DNA of 64,000 bases from an uncultured bacterium (GTDB lineage: Bacteria > Babelota > Babeliae > Babelales > Babelaceae): NCBI GenBank assembly GCA_963819815.1, contig CAWFXL010000001.1, positions 832,001-896,000 of the forward strand, in the 5' to 3' direction. Positions 9,362 to 14,842 of this stretch are shown here, in pieces. Under the pieces are notes generated by a model. The model searched no databases. It worked only from the letters and a program-made list of their open reading frames with translations, and was not told the DNA's origin. How positions within the stretch are numbered: position 1 is the stretch's first letter; each line of letters starts with the position of its first letter. Made by a program: the position numbers and the translations under genes.

Positions 9362-10117
9362 TCAGTCTTGCTGAGCAAGCTTTGCATACTCAACCTGACC
9401 AATAAGTTCGTCAGGCTTCAAGCTTTTCTTTTCATGAGCACCATATTGCTTGGTAATCTTCCCATTTTCTAGAATCCACACTTTGTTACCGATACTTAAG
9501 GCAATGTGAGGATCATGCGTTATCAGTAACGTAGTTATTCGGTGTTGTCGAATAAACTGGGTCGCATACTGCAGCAATCGTGTCGCTGCCTGAGGATCAA
9601 GAGCTGCCGTAGGCTCATCAAGCAGGAGAACTTTAGGGATGTGACGCGTTGCCATAACAAAGGCAATAAGCTGCCTTTGCCCACCTGATAATGCATCCAT
9701 CGGTTTTTCTAACAGTGAAGGATGAATACCTAGTGCACCGATAATCTGTTCTGCAAGCTCTTGCGGTAGTACCTGCATACCATCGATCAAGCGCGCTCGC
9801 CGGCGACTATAATGTGCTAACGCAAGATTTTGGGCGACCGTAAGTGAGCCGACTGAATTCAACTGCGTATTTTGAAAAAGACGGGTAATCATGCCGGCAC
9901 GTTGTTGCTCACTCAACATGGTAATATCGGCACCTTCCAATTCTATCGTACCATTCTGAGGTTTTGTTTTCCCAGCAATCGTATTAAAGAACGTGCTTTT
10001 CCCAGCGCCATTAGCGCCCACTATCACCACAAAATCTCCCTCAGTAACCTCACAGGAAAGATCCTGTAAAATATGGTTCTGAGAAAGCCAGACATCAATG
10101 TGTTTAAGTGTTAACAT
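9362..10117 (-). CDS. ABC transporter ATP-binding subunit (putative Trp/Tyr transport system)
   Basis: GANGAGKST, LSGGQRQ, LLLDEPTAALDP, ITHD. Confidence 0.92.
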   Translation of the reverse strand: MLTLKHIDVWLSQNHILQDLSCEVTEGDFVVIVGANGAGKSTFFNTIAGKTKPQNGTIELEGADITMLSEQQRAGMITRLFQNTQLNSVGSLTVAQNLALAHYSRRRARLIDGMQVLPQELAEQIIGALGIHPSLLEKPMDALSGGQRQLIAFVMATRHIPKVLLLDEPTAALDPQAATRLLQYATQFIRQHRITTLLITHDPHIALSIGNKVWILENGKITKQYGAHEKKSLKPDELIGQVEYAKLAQQD

Positions 10118-10127
10118 AACCATTTCC

Positions 10128-10970
10128 TTACTTCTTGGGTAACCATTGTTTGATACCGAGCAACACAACGATAAGCGTTGCCGTAATTAATTTATTCCAA
10201 TCTTGATTGAGCTGTAATTCAAAGGTCAATGCAATCAGTGCTTGATACATAATTGAACCTAGCACAAGTGCAATGCCAAAGTTAGTACTCAGCACTTGGG
10301 CAAGTATCATGCCAGCCAATCCGATGATCAGCACACCAACTCCCGTCCAGATCGAAAAGTACCCCGCATAGTGCACAAATAGGGCACCACTTACTGCAGC
10401 AAGCATATTTGAAAGGACCAATCCAAGAACGAGGTACCCTTCTACACTTTTACCGACATTCGTTACCATCTGTGGTGTATCACCCACTGCACGAAGCAAG
10501 AACCCAACTTCAGTTTTTAAGAACCAACTCATCAGAGAAAAAAGTAGTATGCAAAGAACCCCTAAGACGAGCAACGGCTGATACGGAGCTAATGAGAGGG
10601 ACAGGGAGGAAAAGATAGTCTCCTTGCCTAGGGTCATATTTGATCCTGCTATAAGAAGCATTATCGAAAAGAGCCCTGTGGTAACGACAATACCACTTAT
10701 CAAATTATTGAGCTGCAACCTCGTATGTAACAGTCCCGTGACAACTCCTGAGAGCCCGCCAGCAATTGCTGCAGCTGCAAGAGCTATCCAGGGATTAAGT
10801 CCCCAGCCAATTAAAAGTGCAGTTAATGCCCCACCTATTCCAAAAGCACCTTCCACCGCTACATTATCAAAGTTAATAAGTCGCGAAGAGAGGTACACGC
10901 CTGCAACAACAAATCCAAAAATTATGCCCCGCTCAACGATGCCTTGTGCTATCTCAACTAGTTCAATCAT
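10128..10970 (-). CDS. ABC transporter permease (BPD_transp_2, putative Trp/Tyr system)
   Basis: EGAFGIGGA, GLLHTRL, GFLLRAVGD; multi-TM; operon context. Confidence 0.9.
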   Translation of the reverse strand: MIELVEIAQGIVERGIIFGFVVAGVYLSSRLINFDNVAVEGAFGIGGALTALLIGWGLNPWIALAAAAIAGGLSGVVTGLLHTRLQLNNLISGIVVTTGLFSIMLLIAGSNMTLGKETIFSSLSLSLAPYQPLLVLGVLCILLFSLMSWFLKTEVGFLLRAVGDTPQMVTNVGKSVEGYLVLGLVLSNMLAAVSGALFVHYAGYFSIWTGVGVLIIGLAGMILAQVLSTNFGIALVLGSIMYQALIALTFELQLNQDWNKLITATLIVVLLGIKQWLPKK

Positions 10971-11935
10971 CTTCTCTCCTCAAGCACCACCTGATTGTGA
11001 AGCTCGGTTGGAATGGTTAATCCAAGTGCCTCTAGTGTTGTTTGGTTAATGAATATCTGCTCACATTTTGGTTGCTCAACAGGCACCTCAAAGGGCTTTT
11101 TACCCTCAACGATCACTTCATGAGCAATCTGTGCAGCCCGCTTACCACCTGTTTTGTAATCAACTCCTCGCGCTGCTAAAGCACCTGATTTTACGAGCAT
11201 GTTATCGCTCACAAATAATGGTTTCTTGTGCTTTAAGGCAGTTGCTGCAATAACCGCAATCGTTGAAGCAACCGTGTTATCGGTGGGCGCTAGAATAACA
11301 TCAGCTTTTCTGCATGCTAACTCAACCATCGCATGTACATCTGCTTCGCTACCAAAAGCAAAATCGCTCACCACGATACCGCGTGCTTCAAGCTCTTTAC
11401 GCATAAGCTTACTCAGAGCTCGTGAGTTTACCTCACCTGAGGTATACACCAGCCCAACATGATGAGCATGTGGCACTAAGTGAAGAAGCATATCTATCTC
11501 AGCTTTAACATCGATCATGTCCTTGGTACCACAGACATTCGTCGTCGGATGAATAATTCCCAATGCAAGGGGATCCGTTACTGCAGAAATAATGATCGGT
11601 CTTTCTTTTTCTACAGCGCTCATCGCCTGAGCTGCTGGAGTCGCAATAGCAAAAAAGCCGTTCATCTTCTTGTTTGCATGAAACTGCTGAGCTATTGAAT
11701 GAGCCTGTGAAACCGAACCCTGAGCATTCTGGATGACAAATGCCACCTCATTGCCCAGTGTACTTTGCAACTCTTGCATAAATCCTTCACGAGCAGCATC
11801 AAGTGCCGGATGCGACGCAGTTTGCAAGATACCAATCGTATAGCGAGCATTCTCTGCCGGCTTCTGCAAACGTTTAATAACAAATGCACCTACGAGTGCT
11901 ACTCCTAGTATGCTCATTAACACTATCTTGTTCAT
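10967..11935 (-). CDS. ABC substrate-binding protein (ABC_sub_bind, TrpX-like Trp/Tyr type)
   Basis: IGILQTASHPALDAAREGF, IATPAAQA, AVTDP, GEVNS, PTDNTV. Confidence 0.9.
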   Translation of the reverse strand: MNKIVLMSILGVALVGAFVIKRLQKPAENARYTIGILQTASHPALDAAREGFMQELQSTLGNEVAFVIQNAQGSVSQAHSIAQQFHANKKMNGFFAIATPAAQAMSAVEKERPIIISAVTDPLALGIIHPTTNVCGTKDMIDVKAEIDMLLHLVPHAHHVGLVYTSGEVNSRALSKLMRKELEARGIVVSDFAFGSEADVHAMVELACRKADVILAPTDNTVASTIAVIAATALKHKKPLFVSDNMLVKSGALAARGVDYKTGGKRAAQIAHEVIVEGKKPFEVPVEQPKCEQIFINQTTLEALGLTIPTELHNQVVLEERR

Positions 11936-12852
11936 AGATTTCCTTCACCGTTTACAAACGTTACCCATGAGCGACTCATCAAAGCCGACTCTTTTCTTTT
12001 TCCTCTAATTGCAATCTGATACTCATTGTGTAGAGCCTGTGTCATACCACCAGGTGCACTAAAATGTTTACTCTCAATACTTTTAATGGGAGTAATTTCA
12101 CTTGCCGTTCCGCACAAAAATGCTTCCGTCGCCTTCTCAATAATCTCGAGGGGCAACGTTTCCACGCGAGTCTCGATACCCAACTCTTTTGCAATACTCA
12201 GTAGTGTTGAGCGCGTTATACCCGGCAAAATCGAAGTCGTTGACGGCGTGATAAGTACTCCATCGACCACAAAAAAAATGTTGGCTACAGAACCTTCTGC
12301 GATAGTGCCCTCATGATCCAAGAGCAATGCCTCATCAAAGCCCCTGCTACGCGCATCATGAAATGCAAGAATCGAGTTAACGTAGAAGCCGTTTATTTTA
12401 TGGTGTATCGGCATCGATTCTGGATGAATACGCTTGACCGATGATATGCCCATCCTAATAGCTTCTTTGCCTAAATATTTTTCCATATCCATCACAAGTA
12501 TGGCGCAGTGAACCGACAATTCCCCAGGACTGAGTAATAACGACTCTCCCCCAAAAAATATAATCGGCCTGATATAACAATCTTCAAAGGTATTGGCTTT
12601 GATAGTAGCTATAATCGCCTGCTCAATTGTCTCTTTGCTCCAAGGAAATGGTACTCCAAAGCAGGAAAATGAATGTAATAATCTCTCTACATGATCAGAG
12701 AGTCTAAAAACAGCCGGGCCATTATCCGTTGCATAGCATCGGATCCCTTCAAAAGCTCCTGAGCCATAATGGAGAGTATGGGTGGTAAGAGGAATGGAAG
12801 CCTCTTTTTGGGGAACCAATGCCCCATCTAACCATATAACTGTGTTCTTCAT
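11932..12852 (-). CDS. ilvE: Class IV (IlvE-type) amino acid aminotransferase
   Basis: LHYGSGAFEGIRCY, YIRP, catalytic Lys in HKINGFYVNS, EGSVANIF, LPGITR, CGTASEI. Confidence 0.92.
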   Translation of the reverse strand: MKNTVIWLDGALVPQKEASIPLTTHTLHYGSGAFEGIRCYATDNGPAVFRLSDHVERLLHSFSCFGVPFPWSKETIEQAIIATIKANTFEDCYIRPIIFFGGESLLLSPGELSVHCAILVMDMEKYLGKEAIRMGISSVKRIHPESMPIHHKINGFYVNSILAFHDARSRGFDEALLLDHEGTIAEGSVANIFFVVDGVLITPSTTSILPGITRSTLLSIAKELGIETRVETLPLEIIEKATEAFLCGTASEITPIKSIESKHFSAPGGMTQALHNEYQIAIRGKRKESALMSRSWVTFVNGEGNL

Positions 12853-12898
12853 GATAGAATCCTTCGAATCCTAGGTTACTTTTTAAAAATTTGGCAAC

Positions 12899-12928
12899 AA
12901 AAAAACCCCGGTTAAAAACCTAGGGTTG
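12899..12928 (-). terminator. Attenuator terminator upstream of ilvE
   Basis: Minus strand AACCCTAGGTT-TTT-AACCGGGGTT plus T-run, about 50 nt before the ilvE start codon. Confidence 0.8.
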
Positions 12929-12962
12929 CACGTAGAGCCTGATATTCTTATTCGTTCATCAT

Positions 12963-13100
12963 TTAGCCATACGCACCCCTCGACATATAATAATATGAAT
13001 ATGAATAAGAAAGGGCACAGTTAGGGCTTTTGGCGCTGGTAAGGCCAGAGAGAATAGTATTCGTGACTGAGGCGTTCAAACATCTTAACGTAATCTTCAT
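12963..13100 (-). CDS. Tyr-rich attenuator leader peptide, 45 aa (MKITLRCLNASVTNTILSGLTSAKSPNCALSYSYSYYYMSRGAYG)
   Basis: Hand translation; 5 TAT codons in 7 positions; antiterminator segment AGGGGTGC sits just before its stop. Confidence 0.72.
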   Translation of the reverse strand: MKITLRCLNASVTNTILSGLTSAKSPNCALSYSYSYYYMSRGAYG

Positions 13101-13107
13101 ACTGATA

Positions 13108-13136
13108 ATCCTAGCATGAAATTTTACAAATAGCAA
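13108..13136 (-). promoter_or_regulatory. Sigma70-type promoter of the leader-ilvE-ABC operon
   Basis: TTGCTA-17 bp-(TGc)TAGGAT, 7 nt before the leader ATG. Confidence 0.6.
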
Positions 13137-13292
13137 GCTTACGTGTAAATCTAATTTTTTTTATGGATTTTCTGAAGGAAGACTTCTCCCTTTGGGTCTA
13201 TTGATTAAAAGGGGCACTGGATGCTTCTCATGAAAATTATTAAGACTACGATTGCGTTTTACGCAAAAGCAAAGTATAGTAATAAAATGCCA

Positions 13293-13384
13293 GGAGAGAT
13301 GGCTGAGTGGTTGAAGGCGGCGGTCTTGAAAACCGTTATCTCGAGCGATCGGGATCGAGGGTTCGAATCCCTCTCTCTCCTCCA
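13293..13384 (+). tRNA. tRNA-Ser(TGA)
   Basis: GGAGAGATGGCTGAGTGG..GCGGT-CTTGAAA-ACCGT..GGTTCGAATCC..CCA; upstream TTGCGT-17-TATAGT. Confidence 0.97.
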
Positions 13385-13553
13385 AAGAATTCCCAGCTTA
13401 CTCTAGCACAGAGTAAGTTTTCAATGTCCATTAAGGGCCAATATCATATAGCACATGAGTCTTCTTACCAACACTATTGACTTTCCATGGCCTCTTTCTT
13501 CATAGTTATAGAAAGAATGTCTAGATCAATTTTTTTGCTTAGGGAGAACTCTG

Positions 13554-13928
13554 ATGAAATTTTTCAACGAAAATACTACGCAACTCGCTCGACAAAACAC
13601 AAATTATCGCAAAGTACTTTTCACTGATGATAAAACTCAGTTCGTCCTTATGTCGATCCCAACAGGTGAAGAAATCCCTAAGGAAATTCATAAAGCTGAT
13701 CAGATTATCCTTATCGTAGAAGGCTCGGGGCAAGCTATCTTAAATGGCATTACCACTCAATTCTCTGCAGGGCATACGCTTATTATTCCTTTGGGAACAA
13801 CCCATACGATCATGAATACTGGATCTTCTGATCTTAAGTTAGTTACCATTTACGCCCCACCACAGCATGCACCGGGTACTATCGATAAAACCAAAGCTGA
13901 TGAAGAAAGAAGAGAAAAGGCTGGGTAG
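13554..13928 (+). CDS. Cupin-domain protein
   Basis: NYRKVLFT, EIHKADQI..VEGSG, IPLGTTHTIMNTG, IYAPPQH. Confidence 0.9.
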   Translation: MKFFNENTTQLARQNTNYRKVLFTDDKTQFVLMSIPTGEEIPKEIHKADQIILIVEGSGQAILNGITTQFSAGHTLIIPLGTTHTIMNTGSSDLKLVTIYAPPQHAPGTIDKTKADEERREKAG

Positions 13929-14008
13929 AAGGTTGAAAGAGGCCGGTTTGTTAGACCAGCCCCTTTTTGGATCATGCAGAATATACATTATCTTTTCATC
14001 ACTTTGGA

Positions 14009-14842
14009 TTAATAGGTATCTGCATCGAGCGCAAGATTAATGAAATTAAGATTGTACTGTACCACGGTATCAACACGCTTGTCCCCAGAAGATTGATATT
14101 TTTCTAAAGCGTTCTTAGAACCGCGAAGATAGGCTTTATACAGCTTAAATGCATTTTCATGGGCAAGGCTATCTTTTTCAGTAATTTTCAGAACATCTAC
14201 CAAATATTGAATACCGGTATAAAGCTCAACACTCAGGTGAAATTCGATATCCGTTACATCGGTAAATGGAATCCGCTGAATCCTCGTTATGTTACCCTTT
14301 TCATCGTAAGAGGTCTGGACCCCTGAGAAAAGTTCATCTGCAGGTAGTGCAAGCATCCTCGTAAAGACCTCTTCACCACCCATAAACATCCGTGTACACA
14401 TTTCATTAAGCTCCGCCGGTGAATAATTCGCAATATCTTTTTCAAGTTTCACTCTTTGGGCTACTGAATGTTCAAATCCTTTAAGTATTACCTCTAATTC
14501 GCGACATTCAATTACGTCTTCGACGTTATAGCTCACGATACCTATTCCTTTATAGGAAAAAGAATATTTTGTGCTCAAATCAGAAAGTTCTAGAAGCGGT
14601 ACGAGTGACTTGTTTTGAGCATCTACAAAACAAAATGTATATTCGGGATGTTTTTCAGCAACTTCGACAAATGCCTGATTCTTCCCAAGAGGCTCTCTTG
14701 AAAAGAGCGTAACTAATAGGTGATTATGGTAAAGCTTCGTGTACTCTTCAACACTCGTAGGAATAACAACCTTGGCAAACATTCCCGACGAGAAAGATAG
14801 CAACGTGGTCAAGACAAGATTTTTTAGAAGTTTCGATTTCAT
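14009..14842 (-). CDS. Secreted hypothetical protein (thioredoxin-like region lacking CxxC plus helical domain), tandem paralog 1
   Basis: Signal peptide; FVEVAEKHPEYTFCFVDA; clear paralog of the next gene. Confidence 0.8.
   Translation of the reverse strand: MKSKLLKNLVLTTLLSFSSGMFAKVVIPTSVEEYTKLYHNHLLVTLFSREPLGKNQAFVEVAEKHPEYTFCFVDAQNKSLVPLLELSDLSTKYSFSYKGIGIVSYNVEDVIECRELEVILKGFEHSVAQRVKLEKDIANYSPAELNEMCTRMFMGGEEVFTRMLALPADELFSGVQTSYDEKGNITRIQRIPFTDVTDIEFHLSVELYTGIQYLVDVLKITEKDSLAHENAFKLYKAYLRGSKNALEKYQSSGDKRVDTVVQYNLNFINLALDADTY

Follow-up and report, generated by a model that had tools for sequence, protein, structure and literature searches.

The window analysed here is a 64,000-nt stretch of the genome of a Dependentiae/Babeliales bacterium (G000; 1.64 Mb in 2 contigs, 88% complete). 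Its own coordinates are used throughout, and the leader and operon features described below lie on the minus strand. Upstream of an operon for an ilvE-type aminotransferase and a PF04392 aromatic amino-acid ATP-binding cassette (ABC) importer, the window carries an element that in all likelihood acts as a ribosome-mediated transcription attenuator reading charged tRNA-Tyr, a reading to which we assign a probability of about 0.8. The element itself is real and conserved. What we observed, and what carries the reading, are the sequence features of the leader, their conservation, the partner-specific pairing of the antiterminator, the fit between ribosome position and fold, and a substrate-binding protein (SBP) whose aligned pocket residues are of the tyrosine type. 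A Tyr-sensing attenuator had been proposed at this place from the letters alone, without database searches (hereafter, the sequence-only reading).

At the upstream end of the element, a -35 hexamer TTGCTA (13131..13136) is followed after 17 nt by a -10 hexamer TAGGAT (13108..13113), and another 7 nt (tatcagt) lead to an ATG at 13100; both the promoter and the start codon had been called by the sequence-only reading and are exact to the base. This ATG opens a leader open reading frame (ORF) of 45 codons plus a stop codon (12963..13100), which encodes MKITLRCLNASVTNTILSGLTSAKSPNCALSYSYSYYYMSRGAYG*, ends with TAA at 12965-12963 and is homologous to 26 other leader ORFs. Tyr is encoded at codons 32, 34, 36, 37, 38 and 44, by TAT in all six cases, and codons 32-38 (12987..13007) form the putative regulatory run Y-S-Y-S-Y-Y-Y, with five Tyr in seven codons. 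The three 8-mers earlier proposed as pairing partners, namely GTGCCCTT (13018-13011, the upstream one), AGGGGTGC (12980-12973, just before the stop codon) and GCAACCCT (12929-12922, in the region of the terminator 5' arm), are found exactly where they had been placed. We distinguish three longer segments. Segment 1 (GTGCCCTTTC, 13009..13018) pairs with segment 2 in minimum free energy (MFE) folds when no ribosome is present. Segment 2 (12956..12979) is the 5' strand of the antiterminator and runs from GGGG through the stop codon TAA to a few bases beyond. Segment 3 (12922..12945) is the 3' strand of the antiterminator, and its last bases, AACCCT (12927-12922), are at the same time the outer half of the terminator 5' arm. 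The intrinsic terminator (12899..12927) starts thirty-five nt after the leader stop codon and consists of a 10-bp stem with one bulged A, a 3-nt loop and U7, written AACCCT(A)GGTT / TTT / AACCGGGGTT at 12927-12904 with seven T at 12905-12899. It folds alone with -9.7 kcal/mol, and the hairpin with its U-tract ahead of ilvE is thereby confirmed at 12927-12899.

Taken together, these parts suggest the following mechanism. Transcription would start at or beside the ATG at 13100, and a ribosome would translate the 45-codon leader behind the advancing RNA polymerase. When Tyr-tRNA is plentiful, the ribosome would reach the stop codon at 12965-12963 and cover the G-run and the bases that follow it (12979-12956), that is, the 5' strand of the antiterminator. 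The C-run at 12925-12922 would then be free, the terminator hairpin (12927-12904) would form, and transcription would end in the U-tract. When Tyr-tRNA is scarce, the ribosome would stall at TAT codons 32-37, covering segment 1 and leaving segment 2 free to pair with segment 3 (12979-12922); the terminator would be blocked, and the aminotransferase and importer genes would be transcribed. With no ribosome on the RNA, segment 1 would pair with segment 2 in the window, and termination would be the default.

To examine the conservation of the element, we started from 261 genomes of the phylum, all in one order; the SBP was found in 94 of them. Since ilvE is too patchy for comparison (7 of 41 relatives, with one close ortholog, in G001, at 95% identity), the comparison was anchored on the SBP gene, and the sample consisted of the 1.5 kb upstream of that gene at 30 loci around orthologous SBP genes. 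A leader was called when an ATG ORF of 30-80 codons ended at most 110 nt before a hairpin with a T-run and held at least four Y/F/W in its last 24 codons. Family-like leaders were found by script at 21 of the 30 loci, or 22 with L010 added, and 27 distinct leaders were compiled when loci retrieved with an RNA model (R1, described below) were included. At two further loci, L020 and L022, the promoter motif is present and the leader is poorer in aromatic codons; L020 matches a second model, R2 (also below), at E = 1.7e-4. The distance from stop codon to terminator in the relatives is 16-49 nt, mostly 25-38 nt. The gene order ilvE-SBP recurs in three other genomes, in two of which it is preceded by a leader with a Y-rich run: the leader of G115/L015 ends ...SYINSYYFYFIYEGSHYA, ...CALSYINSYYFYFIYEGSHYA, and that of G109/L027 ends ...SFSSYYYYTYRGSRMSIG, ...SALSFSSYYYYTYRGSRMSIG.

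The leader ORF with its Tyr run, as described in the sequence-only reading, turned out to be conserved in frame across several Babeliales families, with a run of Tyr (plus Phe) in the same place. All 27 leaders are open in frame, against an average of 2.2 and 2.7 stops in frames +1 and +2, a result that is supportive and not independent, the set having been chosen as ORFs; in shuffled sequences a frame of this length stays open in about 5% of cases (median 0.046; 4.6% of trials). Tyr and Phe account for 34% of the last 22 codons in the 27 leaders and for 8% in the first part, an enrichment that is partly circular and to that extent tells against us, because the leaders were chosen partly for aromatic content (at least four aromatic residues). 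The last 22 codons comprise 127 Tyr, 76 Phe and 3 Trp, and the aromatic codons used in the leaders are TAT (118), TAC (25), TTT (96) and TTC (19). As to the conservation of the Tyr codons, on which the earlier proposal had been made to depend, the aromatic run as such is kept, but Tyr and Phe occur together, and in the relatives the sensor is predicted to read both.

This mixture is the chief argument for another reading, in which the element is a leader-peptide attenuator that senses Phe, aromatic amino acids in general or general translation stress, and the Tyr codons of the window are a drifted Tyr/Phe run. Apart from the 127 Tyr and 76 Phe, it can draw on Phe-dominated leaders such as L028 (Y3 F6), L035 (Y2 F5) and L062 (Y1 F4). 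It can draw as well on aroR of Corynebacterium glutamicum, which has only Phe-Tyr-Phe as regulatory codons and is reported, in PMC11802643, to respond to Phe and not to Tyr; this counts against a Tyr-specific sensor, in that codons alone do not prove which amino acid is sensed. The leaders of the window and of G001 nevertheless contain six Tyr and no Phe, the Ser residues between the Tyr codons of the window are not conserved (Ala in G001), and the SBP has an acidic residue at the position of the tyrosine-hydroxyl contact. We regard a sensor of Phe or of wider stress as unlikely.

The sequence-only reading had further placed the leader on a leaderless mRNA, and the promoter spacing in the relatives fits this. 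The spacing -35/17/-10/7/ATG recurs as TTGnnn-17-TAnnnN-7-ATG, within about 1 nt, in about 19 of the 27 leaders (read by eye from a table). The -35 hexamer is embedded in an extended motif, TTGCTATTTGTA, that is kept in relatives; the exact 12-mer is found upstream in 10 of the 30 SBP loci. In G001 the -10 hexamer reads TACGAT, so that the sole AGGA (Shine-Dalgarno-like) before the ATG is gone and AGGA is not a conserved feature. Because the distance from the -10 to the ATG is fixed and the only AGGA is lost in G001, the leader mRNA is probably leaderless or nearly so, as predicted from the promoter spacing. A consensus promoter scanner favoured another promoter-like site, TTTACA-17-TAAAAT at 13149-13121.

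We then turned to the pairing between segments 2 and 3. In all 22 aligned leaders (alignment A1, cut before the terminator 3' arm), the antiterminator folds as one long interrupted hairpin, whose outermost pairs join the G-run that immediately precedes the stop codon to the C-run in the terminator 5' arm. Inside this outer pairing lie two helices, typically CGCA:UGCG and UGCC:GGCA, and the stop codon is contained in the 5' strand. Segment 2 had earlier been claimed to pair with the terminator arm over 8 nt. A partner-specific antiterminator is indeed present, but it is far longer than that, extending in the window over 12979-12922 and including the stop codon. Sequence alignments put the inner helices out of register, and RNAalifold recovered from them only the terminator or only the GGG:CCC pairs; for this reason we used alignment-free duplex energies and a model-fitted alignment. 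The terminator consensus of RNAalifold has 7 bp, with compensatory changes in four pairs.

To measure partner specificity over the full length of the segments, we computed duplexes of segment 2 from each leader with the cognate segment 3 and with segment 3 from all other leaders. The mean duplex energy was -19.05 kcal/mol for cognate and -15.17 kcal/mol for non-cognate pairs, and none of 5000 permutations reached the observed value. For the inner part, the invariant G and C runs were removed and the near-duplicates L010, L015 and L037 dropped. The 24 leaders left gave -8.97 for cognate against -6.71 for non-cognate duplexes, again with 0/10,000 permutations as extreme. Measured against composition-preserving shuffles, the inner 2:3 pairing reached z < -1.64 in 14 of these 24 leaders; among the ten that missed the threshold, L016, L028, L032, L033, L034, L056, L060, L061 and L062 missed it clearly, and L009 stood at -1.64. 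In a test with fixed columns, we used an alignment of 20 sequences (A3) fitted to a model of 12 pairs (R2), an alignment that leans towards the structure. In it, 81.9% of cells pair, compared with 22-52% when the partner is slid by 1-3 columns, and 6 of the 12 pairs show changes on both sides. Model R2 matches the window at 12917-12984.

To relate the fold to the position of the ribosome, the nascent RNA, from the ATG to the terminator loop, was folded with a 28-nt footprint held unpaired. For the window without a ribosome, the fold (-33.9 kcal/mol) has segment 1 (13018-13009) bound to segment 2 and leaves the C-run unpaired. An A site occupied by Tyr32 or Tyr34 gives the antiterminator, at -28.3 kcal/mol, and one occupied by the stop codon puts segment 2 under the ribosome. 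For A-site codons 28-35 the model yields the antiterminator. Such folding with and without a footprint had been suggested along with the sequence-only reading, and in the model it reproduces for the window the 1:2 / 2:3 / 3:4 logic supposed there. In L015, L017, L029, L035, L057 and L062, the antiterminator persists until the ribosome has moved beyond the Y/F run, into the last 8-10 codons. Since relatives that have the antiterminator as default lose it only at this point, the feature common to the family in these simulations is that a ribosome at the end of the leader melts the antiterminator.

Several results weigh against the attenuator reading. In the window, the antiterminator also forms with codons 3-11 in the A site and does not form at Tyr36-38; with Tyr36 in the A site, the model closes the 1:2 pairing around the footprint, which is impossible for a real ribosome. 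The footprint model is crude, for it lets a hairpin loop enclose a 28-nt footprint, which is not realistic physically. In many relatives, moreover, the antiterminator is the default fold. The 1:2 hairpin claimed earlier does form in the MFE fold of the window, but it is not the default in those relatives, and it shows neither covariation nor an advantage for cognate partners (698/5000 permutations reach the observed value). Full-length RNA at equilibrium keeps the terminator at all ribosome positions in 8 of 10 leaders and at all but one in the window, and the switch must therefore be kinetic. In trp attenuation of E. coli the choice is likewise kinetic. Covariation in A3 is modest, at 0.212 against 0.181 in shuffles, a value reached by 11/500 of them. 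No leader was found at 6 of the 30 SBP loci (L024, L026, L030, L031, L036 and L038), and one of these, L026, has the ilvE-SBP order. Finally, the start of transcription, the translation of the leader, the stalling, the termination and the response to Tyr are steps that we infer from the sequence; a look-up of sequencing runs containing the stretch listed no RNA run and a single DNA run, with a 0.15 share of its words.

The single-sequence statistics of the window belong on the same side. Its terminator is the weakest of 10 folded (-9.7 against -12.6 to -18.9 kcal/mol), a consensus scanner called no terminator at the window leader, owing to the bulge, and shuffles of the 218-nt leader fold as well as the leader itself (z = +0.50, 135/200 as good). 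The window sequence alone is indistinguishable from chance, and significance comes only from conservation in the relatives. That the whole is a chance ORF beside an ordinary terminator would suit these unremarkable statistics; it is already contradicted by the comparative data, which show that several families of the order have kept the element and that its pairing covaries, and we consider it next to impossible.

Conservation would also be expected of a structured RNA regulator (a riboswitch, say, or a leader bound by a protein or a tRNA), with the ORF incidental and the Y/F run a U/A-rich spacer. Some nucleotide stretches of the family are in fact strongly conserved, e.g. GGCCTTAAC..GCCAAAAGCC and TATGCCTAA. 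The window and G001 leaders differ by 5 synonymous and 3 non-synonymous codon changes, and in two further close pairs non-synonymous changes exceed synonymous ones (synonymous to non-synonymous, 3:13 and 4:17), as an incidental ORF would have it. Against this stand the frame open in all 27 leaders (a set chosen as ORFs) with two to three stops in each of the other frames, and the ATG at a fixed distance from the promoter. In addition, cmscan with Rfam over window positions 12000-14500 (E up to 10) gave only tRNA and chance matches and none in 12899-13136, the T-box included, which places the element, as judged by similarity, outside every Rfam leader family, Trp_leader, Phe_leader, His_leader, Leu_leader and Thr_leader among them, and outside the T-box family. 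The leaders of asnA, described below, exchange the run for Asn codons, unlike a spacer. Overall, we find a purely structural RNA improbable.

The peptide itself could instead be the product that matters, the leader being a gene for a small Tyr-rich protein with its own terminator and the operon being transcribed from its own promoter, for example TTGCCA-18-TAGGAT at 12897-12868. This promoter-like site lies just past the terminator, and many relatives have TTGCC behind the T-run. Conservation of the peptide is, however, poor over its N-terminal two thirds, as is expected for a leader that needs only to be translated, and the C-terminus that is conserved falls where the RNA has its pairing segment. 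Segments 2 and 3 pair in a partner-specific way and in overlap with the terminator, and the element is always found upstream of the transporter in the same orientation. A small-protein gene is thus a very improbable explanation. Within the ORF, the sequence of a small hairpin, GGCCTT..GCGCC (13032..13046), is conserved in much of the family and appears in MFE folds; it may serve as a pause hairpin or follow from a conserved G-L-N-x-A-K stretch of the peptide.

The attenuator reading gains from the genes that it would control. The first of them encodes a class IV aminotransferase of the ilvE type (11932..12852; Pfam PF01063; NCBIfam PRK06606 with 319 bits against a cut-off of 279), and it is followed by the PF04392 SBP (10967..11935; E = 8e-57), an ABC permease (10128..10970; Pfam BPD_transp_2) and an ABC ATPase (9362..10168; Pfam). 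The SBP matches three solved binders with E = 4e-45 to 1e-35, namely 6HNI (Clostridioides difficile CD0873), 3LKV (Vibrio cholerae VC_1101) and 3LFT (Streptococcus pneumoniae SP1069), the best being 6HNI at E = 4e-45. As described in PMC6816091, their ligands are, in the same order, Tyr, Phe and Trp, and specificity depends on two residues of CD0873: Glu-263, which makes a bond to the tyrosine hydroxyl and is replaced by Ala in the other two proteins, and Tyr-279, which keeps Trp out and has Gln as its counterpart in the protein that binds Trp. In HMMER alignments with offsets that fit all three chains, Asp244 of the window SBP aligns to Glu-263 and Tyr260 to Tyr-279. Among Dependentiae SBPs, Asp occupies the first position in 34 of 35 and Tyr the second in 35 of 35. 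The tyrosine import proposed in the sequence-only reading is accordingly matched by pocket residues of the tyrosine type, and the transporter fits a predicted Tyr-preferring, Trp-excluding importer in which Asp replaces Glu at the hydroxyl contact. An assignment to the TrpX equivalog (NCBIfam NF041285) was rejected: the SBP scores 225 bits against a cut-off of 390, and it has Tyr where the Trp binder has Gln. No link was seen between the Tyr:Phe ratio of a leader and the pocket residue of its SBP, because Asp is nearly invariant.

The gene content of the genome bears on the same point. We did not find PDH_N (prephenate dehydrogenase), PDT (prephenate dehydratase), CM_2 chorismate mutase or IlvD in G000, which is 88% complete, and with these four lacking from the matches, uptake or salvage of Tyr is plausible. 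The host dependence and auxotrophy that had been supposed are in keeping with this and with the affiliation to Dependentiae. A chorismate synthase is present at C1:18685-19461 (-), its match being broken into three stretches of a frame of about 301 aa. As no branched-chain pathway was found, the aminotransferase stands alone, and it is best read as a candidate salvage enzyme that interconverts keto acids and amino acids. Phenylpyruvate is among the substrates of E. coli IlvE.

We next followed the element beyond the SBP loci. A covariance model (R1) of the 3' 140 nt of the leader was searched in 121 of the 261 genomes (Babeliales). It has one true copy in G000 and gave 22 full-length matches (E <= 1e-4) in 20 of the 121 genomes. 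Among the matches whose neighbourhood was examined, most precede an SBP gene; others are L064, before the permease of such a transporter, L059, before an IS110 transposase, and L063, before asnA. A scan of the whole G000 genome for other pairs of leader ORF and terminator with codon runs found only the element of the window.

The match before asnA points to a second specificity. Its leader ends ...NNQNNSQQQNNNNDLLAGVFA, and we therefore looked at asnA across the phylum, where the sample comprised 22 of 25 places from a family search. At 14 of the 22 loci, a leader ORF with an Asn run is followed by a G-run, a C-run and a terminator, built like the Tyr leader. Examples of the runs are NNQNNNNQ, NNNNQNNNNQ and NNQNNNNNNQ (Asn and Gln codons), and an example locus is L082 (G093:C2:75840-79547), within the set L075-L092 from other Dependentiae genomes. 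Three of the 22 loci (L085, L094 and L098) have a leader ORF and terminator with no clear run, and at five none was found by the criteria; two of these have <140 nt upstream, and L095 has an Asn run with no terminator detected. The runs are of Tyr/Phe at some loci and of Asn at others, and hence the codon run changes with the gene that it precedes. The asnA leader looks like a putative asparagine-sensing attenuator of asparagine synthetase A, of which we found no published description. It seems to us rather probable, with less confidence than for the Tyr attenuator itself, that Dependentiae, which depend on hosts and have reduced genomes, sense amino acids in general with one common, probably leaderless attenuator framework, in which Tyr/Phe runs would switch aromatic importers and Asn runs asnA.

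The proposed attenuator resembles known systems in its parts. Like trpL, pheL/pheA, pheM/pheST and hisL of E. coli, as described in PMC11802643 and PMC3082878, it has a short, presumably translated leader, clustered codons for the sensed amino acid and an intrinsic terminator, and, as there, the antiterminator shares a strand with the terminator and the hairpin would be chosen by the position of the ribosome. In contrast to these, the window element would sense Tyr (Tyr plus Phe in relatives), and its target is an uptake ABC transporter with a salvage aminotransferase in place of a biosynthetic operon or a tRNA synthetase. Its leader is long, at 45 codons, and probably leaderless, its stop codon lies inside the antiterminator 5' strand, it has no sequence similarity to Rfam leader families, and its host belongs to a candidate phylum and is host-dependent. 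The aroR leader upstream of aroF (Neshat et al. 2014, in PMC11802643) likewise has both Tyr and Phe as regulatory codons; it controls DAHP synthase, whereas here Tyr has 5-7 codons and the proposed target is an importer whose binding pocket is predicted to be of the tyrosine type. Mycobacterial leaderless short ORFs encoding polycysteine are described as Cys-responsive attenuators (bioRxiv 10.1101/834739). They differ from the present case in amino acid and phylum; here there is a clear pair of terminator and antiterminator, and the leaderless start is predicted from promoter spacing only.

Two comparisons concern the transporter. The TrpXYZ system of Streptococcus suis (PMC9382623) belongs to the same PF04392 SBP family and is likewise switched on when an aromatic amino acid is scarce, through a leader with terminator and antiterminator. 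The sensor there is uncharged tRNA-Trp on a T-box RNA, whereas here it is proposed to be a ribosome translating Tyr codons; the leader gives no T-box match, and the window SBP remains below the TrpX cut-off. CD0873 of C. difficile (6HNI, PMC6816091), in turn, shares with the window SBP both an acidic residue at the contact to the Tyr hydroxyl and the Trp-excluding Tyr, with Asp in the window in place of Glu.

In a 2005 survey (PMC1262725), tyrosine genes come under T-box control, and attenuators are listed only for His, Thr and Phe among others. We found no published Tyr or Asn leader-peptide attenuator, and no attenuation in Dependentiae, in the literature outside subscription journals. If the readings hold, ribosome-mediated attenuation specific to Tyr, and that specific to Asn, would each have its first example here. 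Leader-peptide attenuation would be extended to tyrosine, whose known RNA-level sensors are T-boxes (PMC1262725), and, in the same phylum, to asparagine. It would control the uptake of a nutrient from the host, and it would act on uptake and salvage and not on biosynthesis, in a phylum of uncultured bacteria that depend on hosts and about whose gene regulation next to nothing has been described. From the codon run of a leader one could then predict which substrate the following gene acts on, in this case tyrosine for the importer, and this offers a regulatory clue to the substrate of a widespread and poorly characterised ABC importer; the pocket residues agree with it. The roughly 27 natural variants, with their differing Tyr:Phe ratios, are material for studying how codon content relates to specificity, and the conserved leaderless geometry provides a case outside Actinobacteria in which a sensing ORF may start at a 5'-terminal AUG.

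Several further observations were made along the way. The cassette at window positions 9362-13136 is patchy in its own genus: of the genomes of the genus that were searched, only G000 and G001 have a close SBP copy. Beyond the genus, the most similar SBP (72% identity) comes from another family. This distribution suggests that the cassette may have been transferred within the phylum together with its leader. Tandem SBP genes, each with its own leader and attenuator, occur in L014 (G104:C9, leaders at 1384-1451 and 2641-2709) and in G040 (C1:246526 and 247726). At L070 (G180:C1:69761-72900), a region with an R1 match at E = 5.9e-4 has a leader ORF and terminator, with no obvious codon run, before an APC-family amino-acid permease. 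At L003 (G013:C1:355067-358858), in an AT-rich relative, a 15-codon ORF with many Ile, Val and Leu codons (MIINVVILTGLIFCI) lies before a distant ilvE (42% identity), with no evident terminator; this ORF could be a product of chance in AT-rich DNA. In the window, the TTGCC directly after the terminator T-run, which recurs in many family members, begins the promoter-like TTGCCA-18-TAGGAT (12868-12897, minus strand) mentioned above, and this site could give basal transcription of ilvE that is independent of the attenuator. About 160 nt upstream of the leader promoter, on the opposite strand, lies a tRNA-Ser(TGA) gene at 13293-13384 (+).

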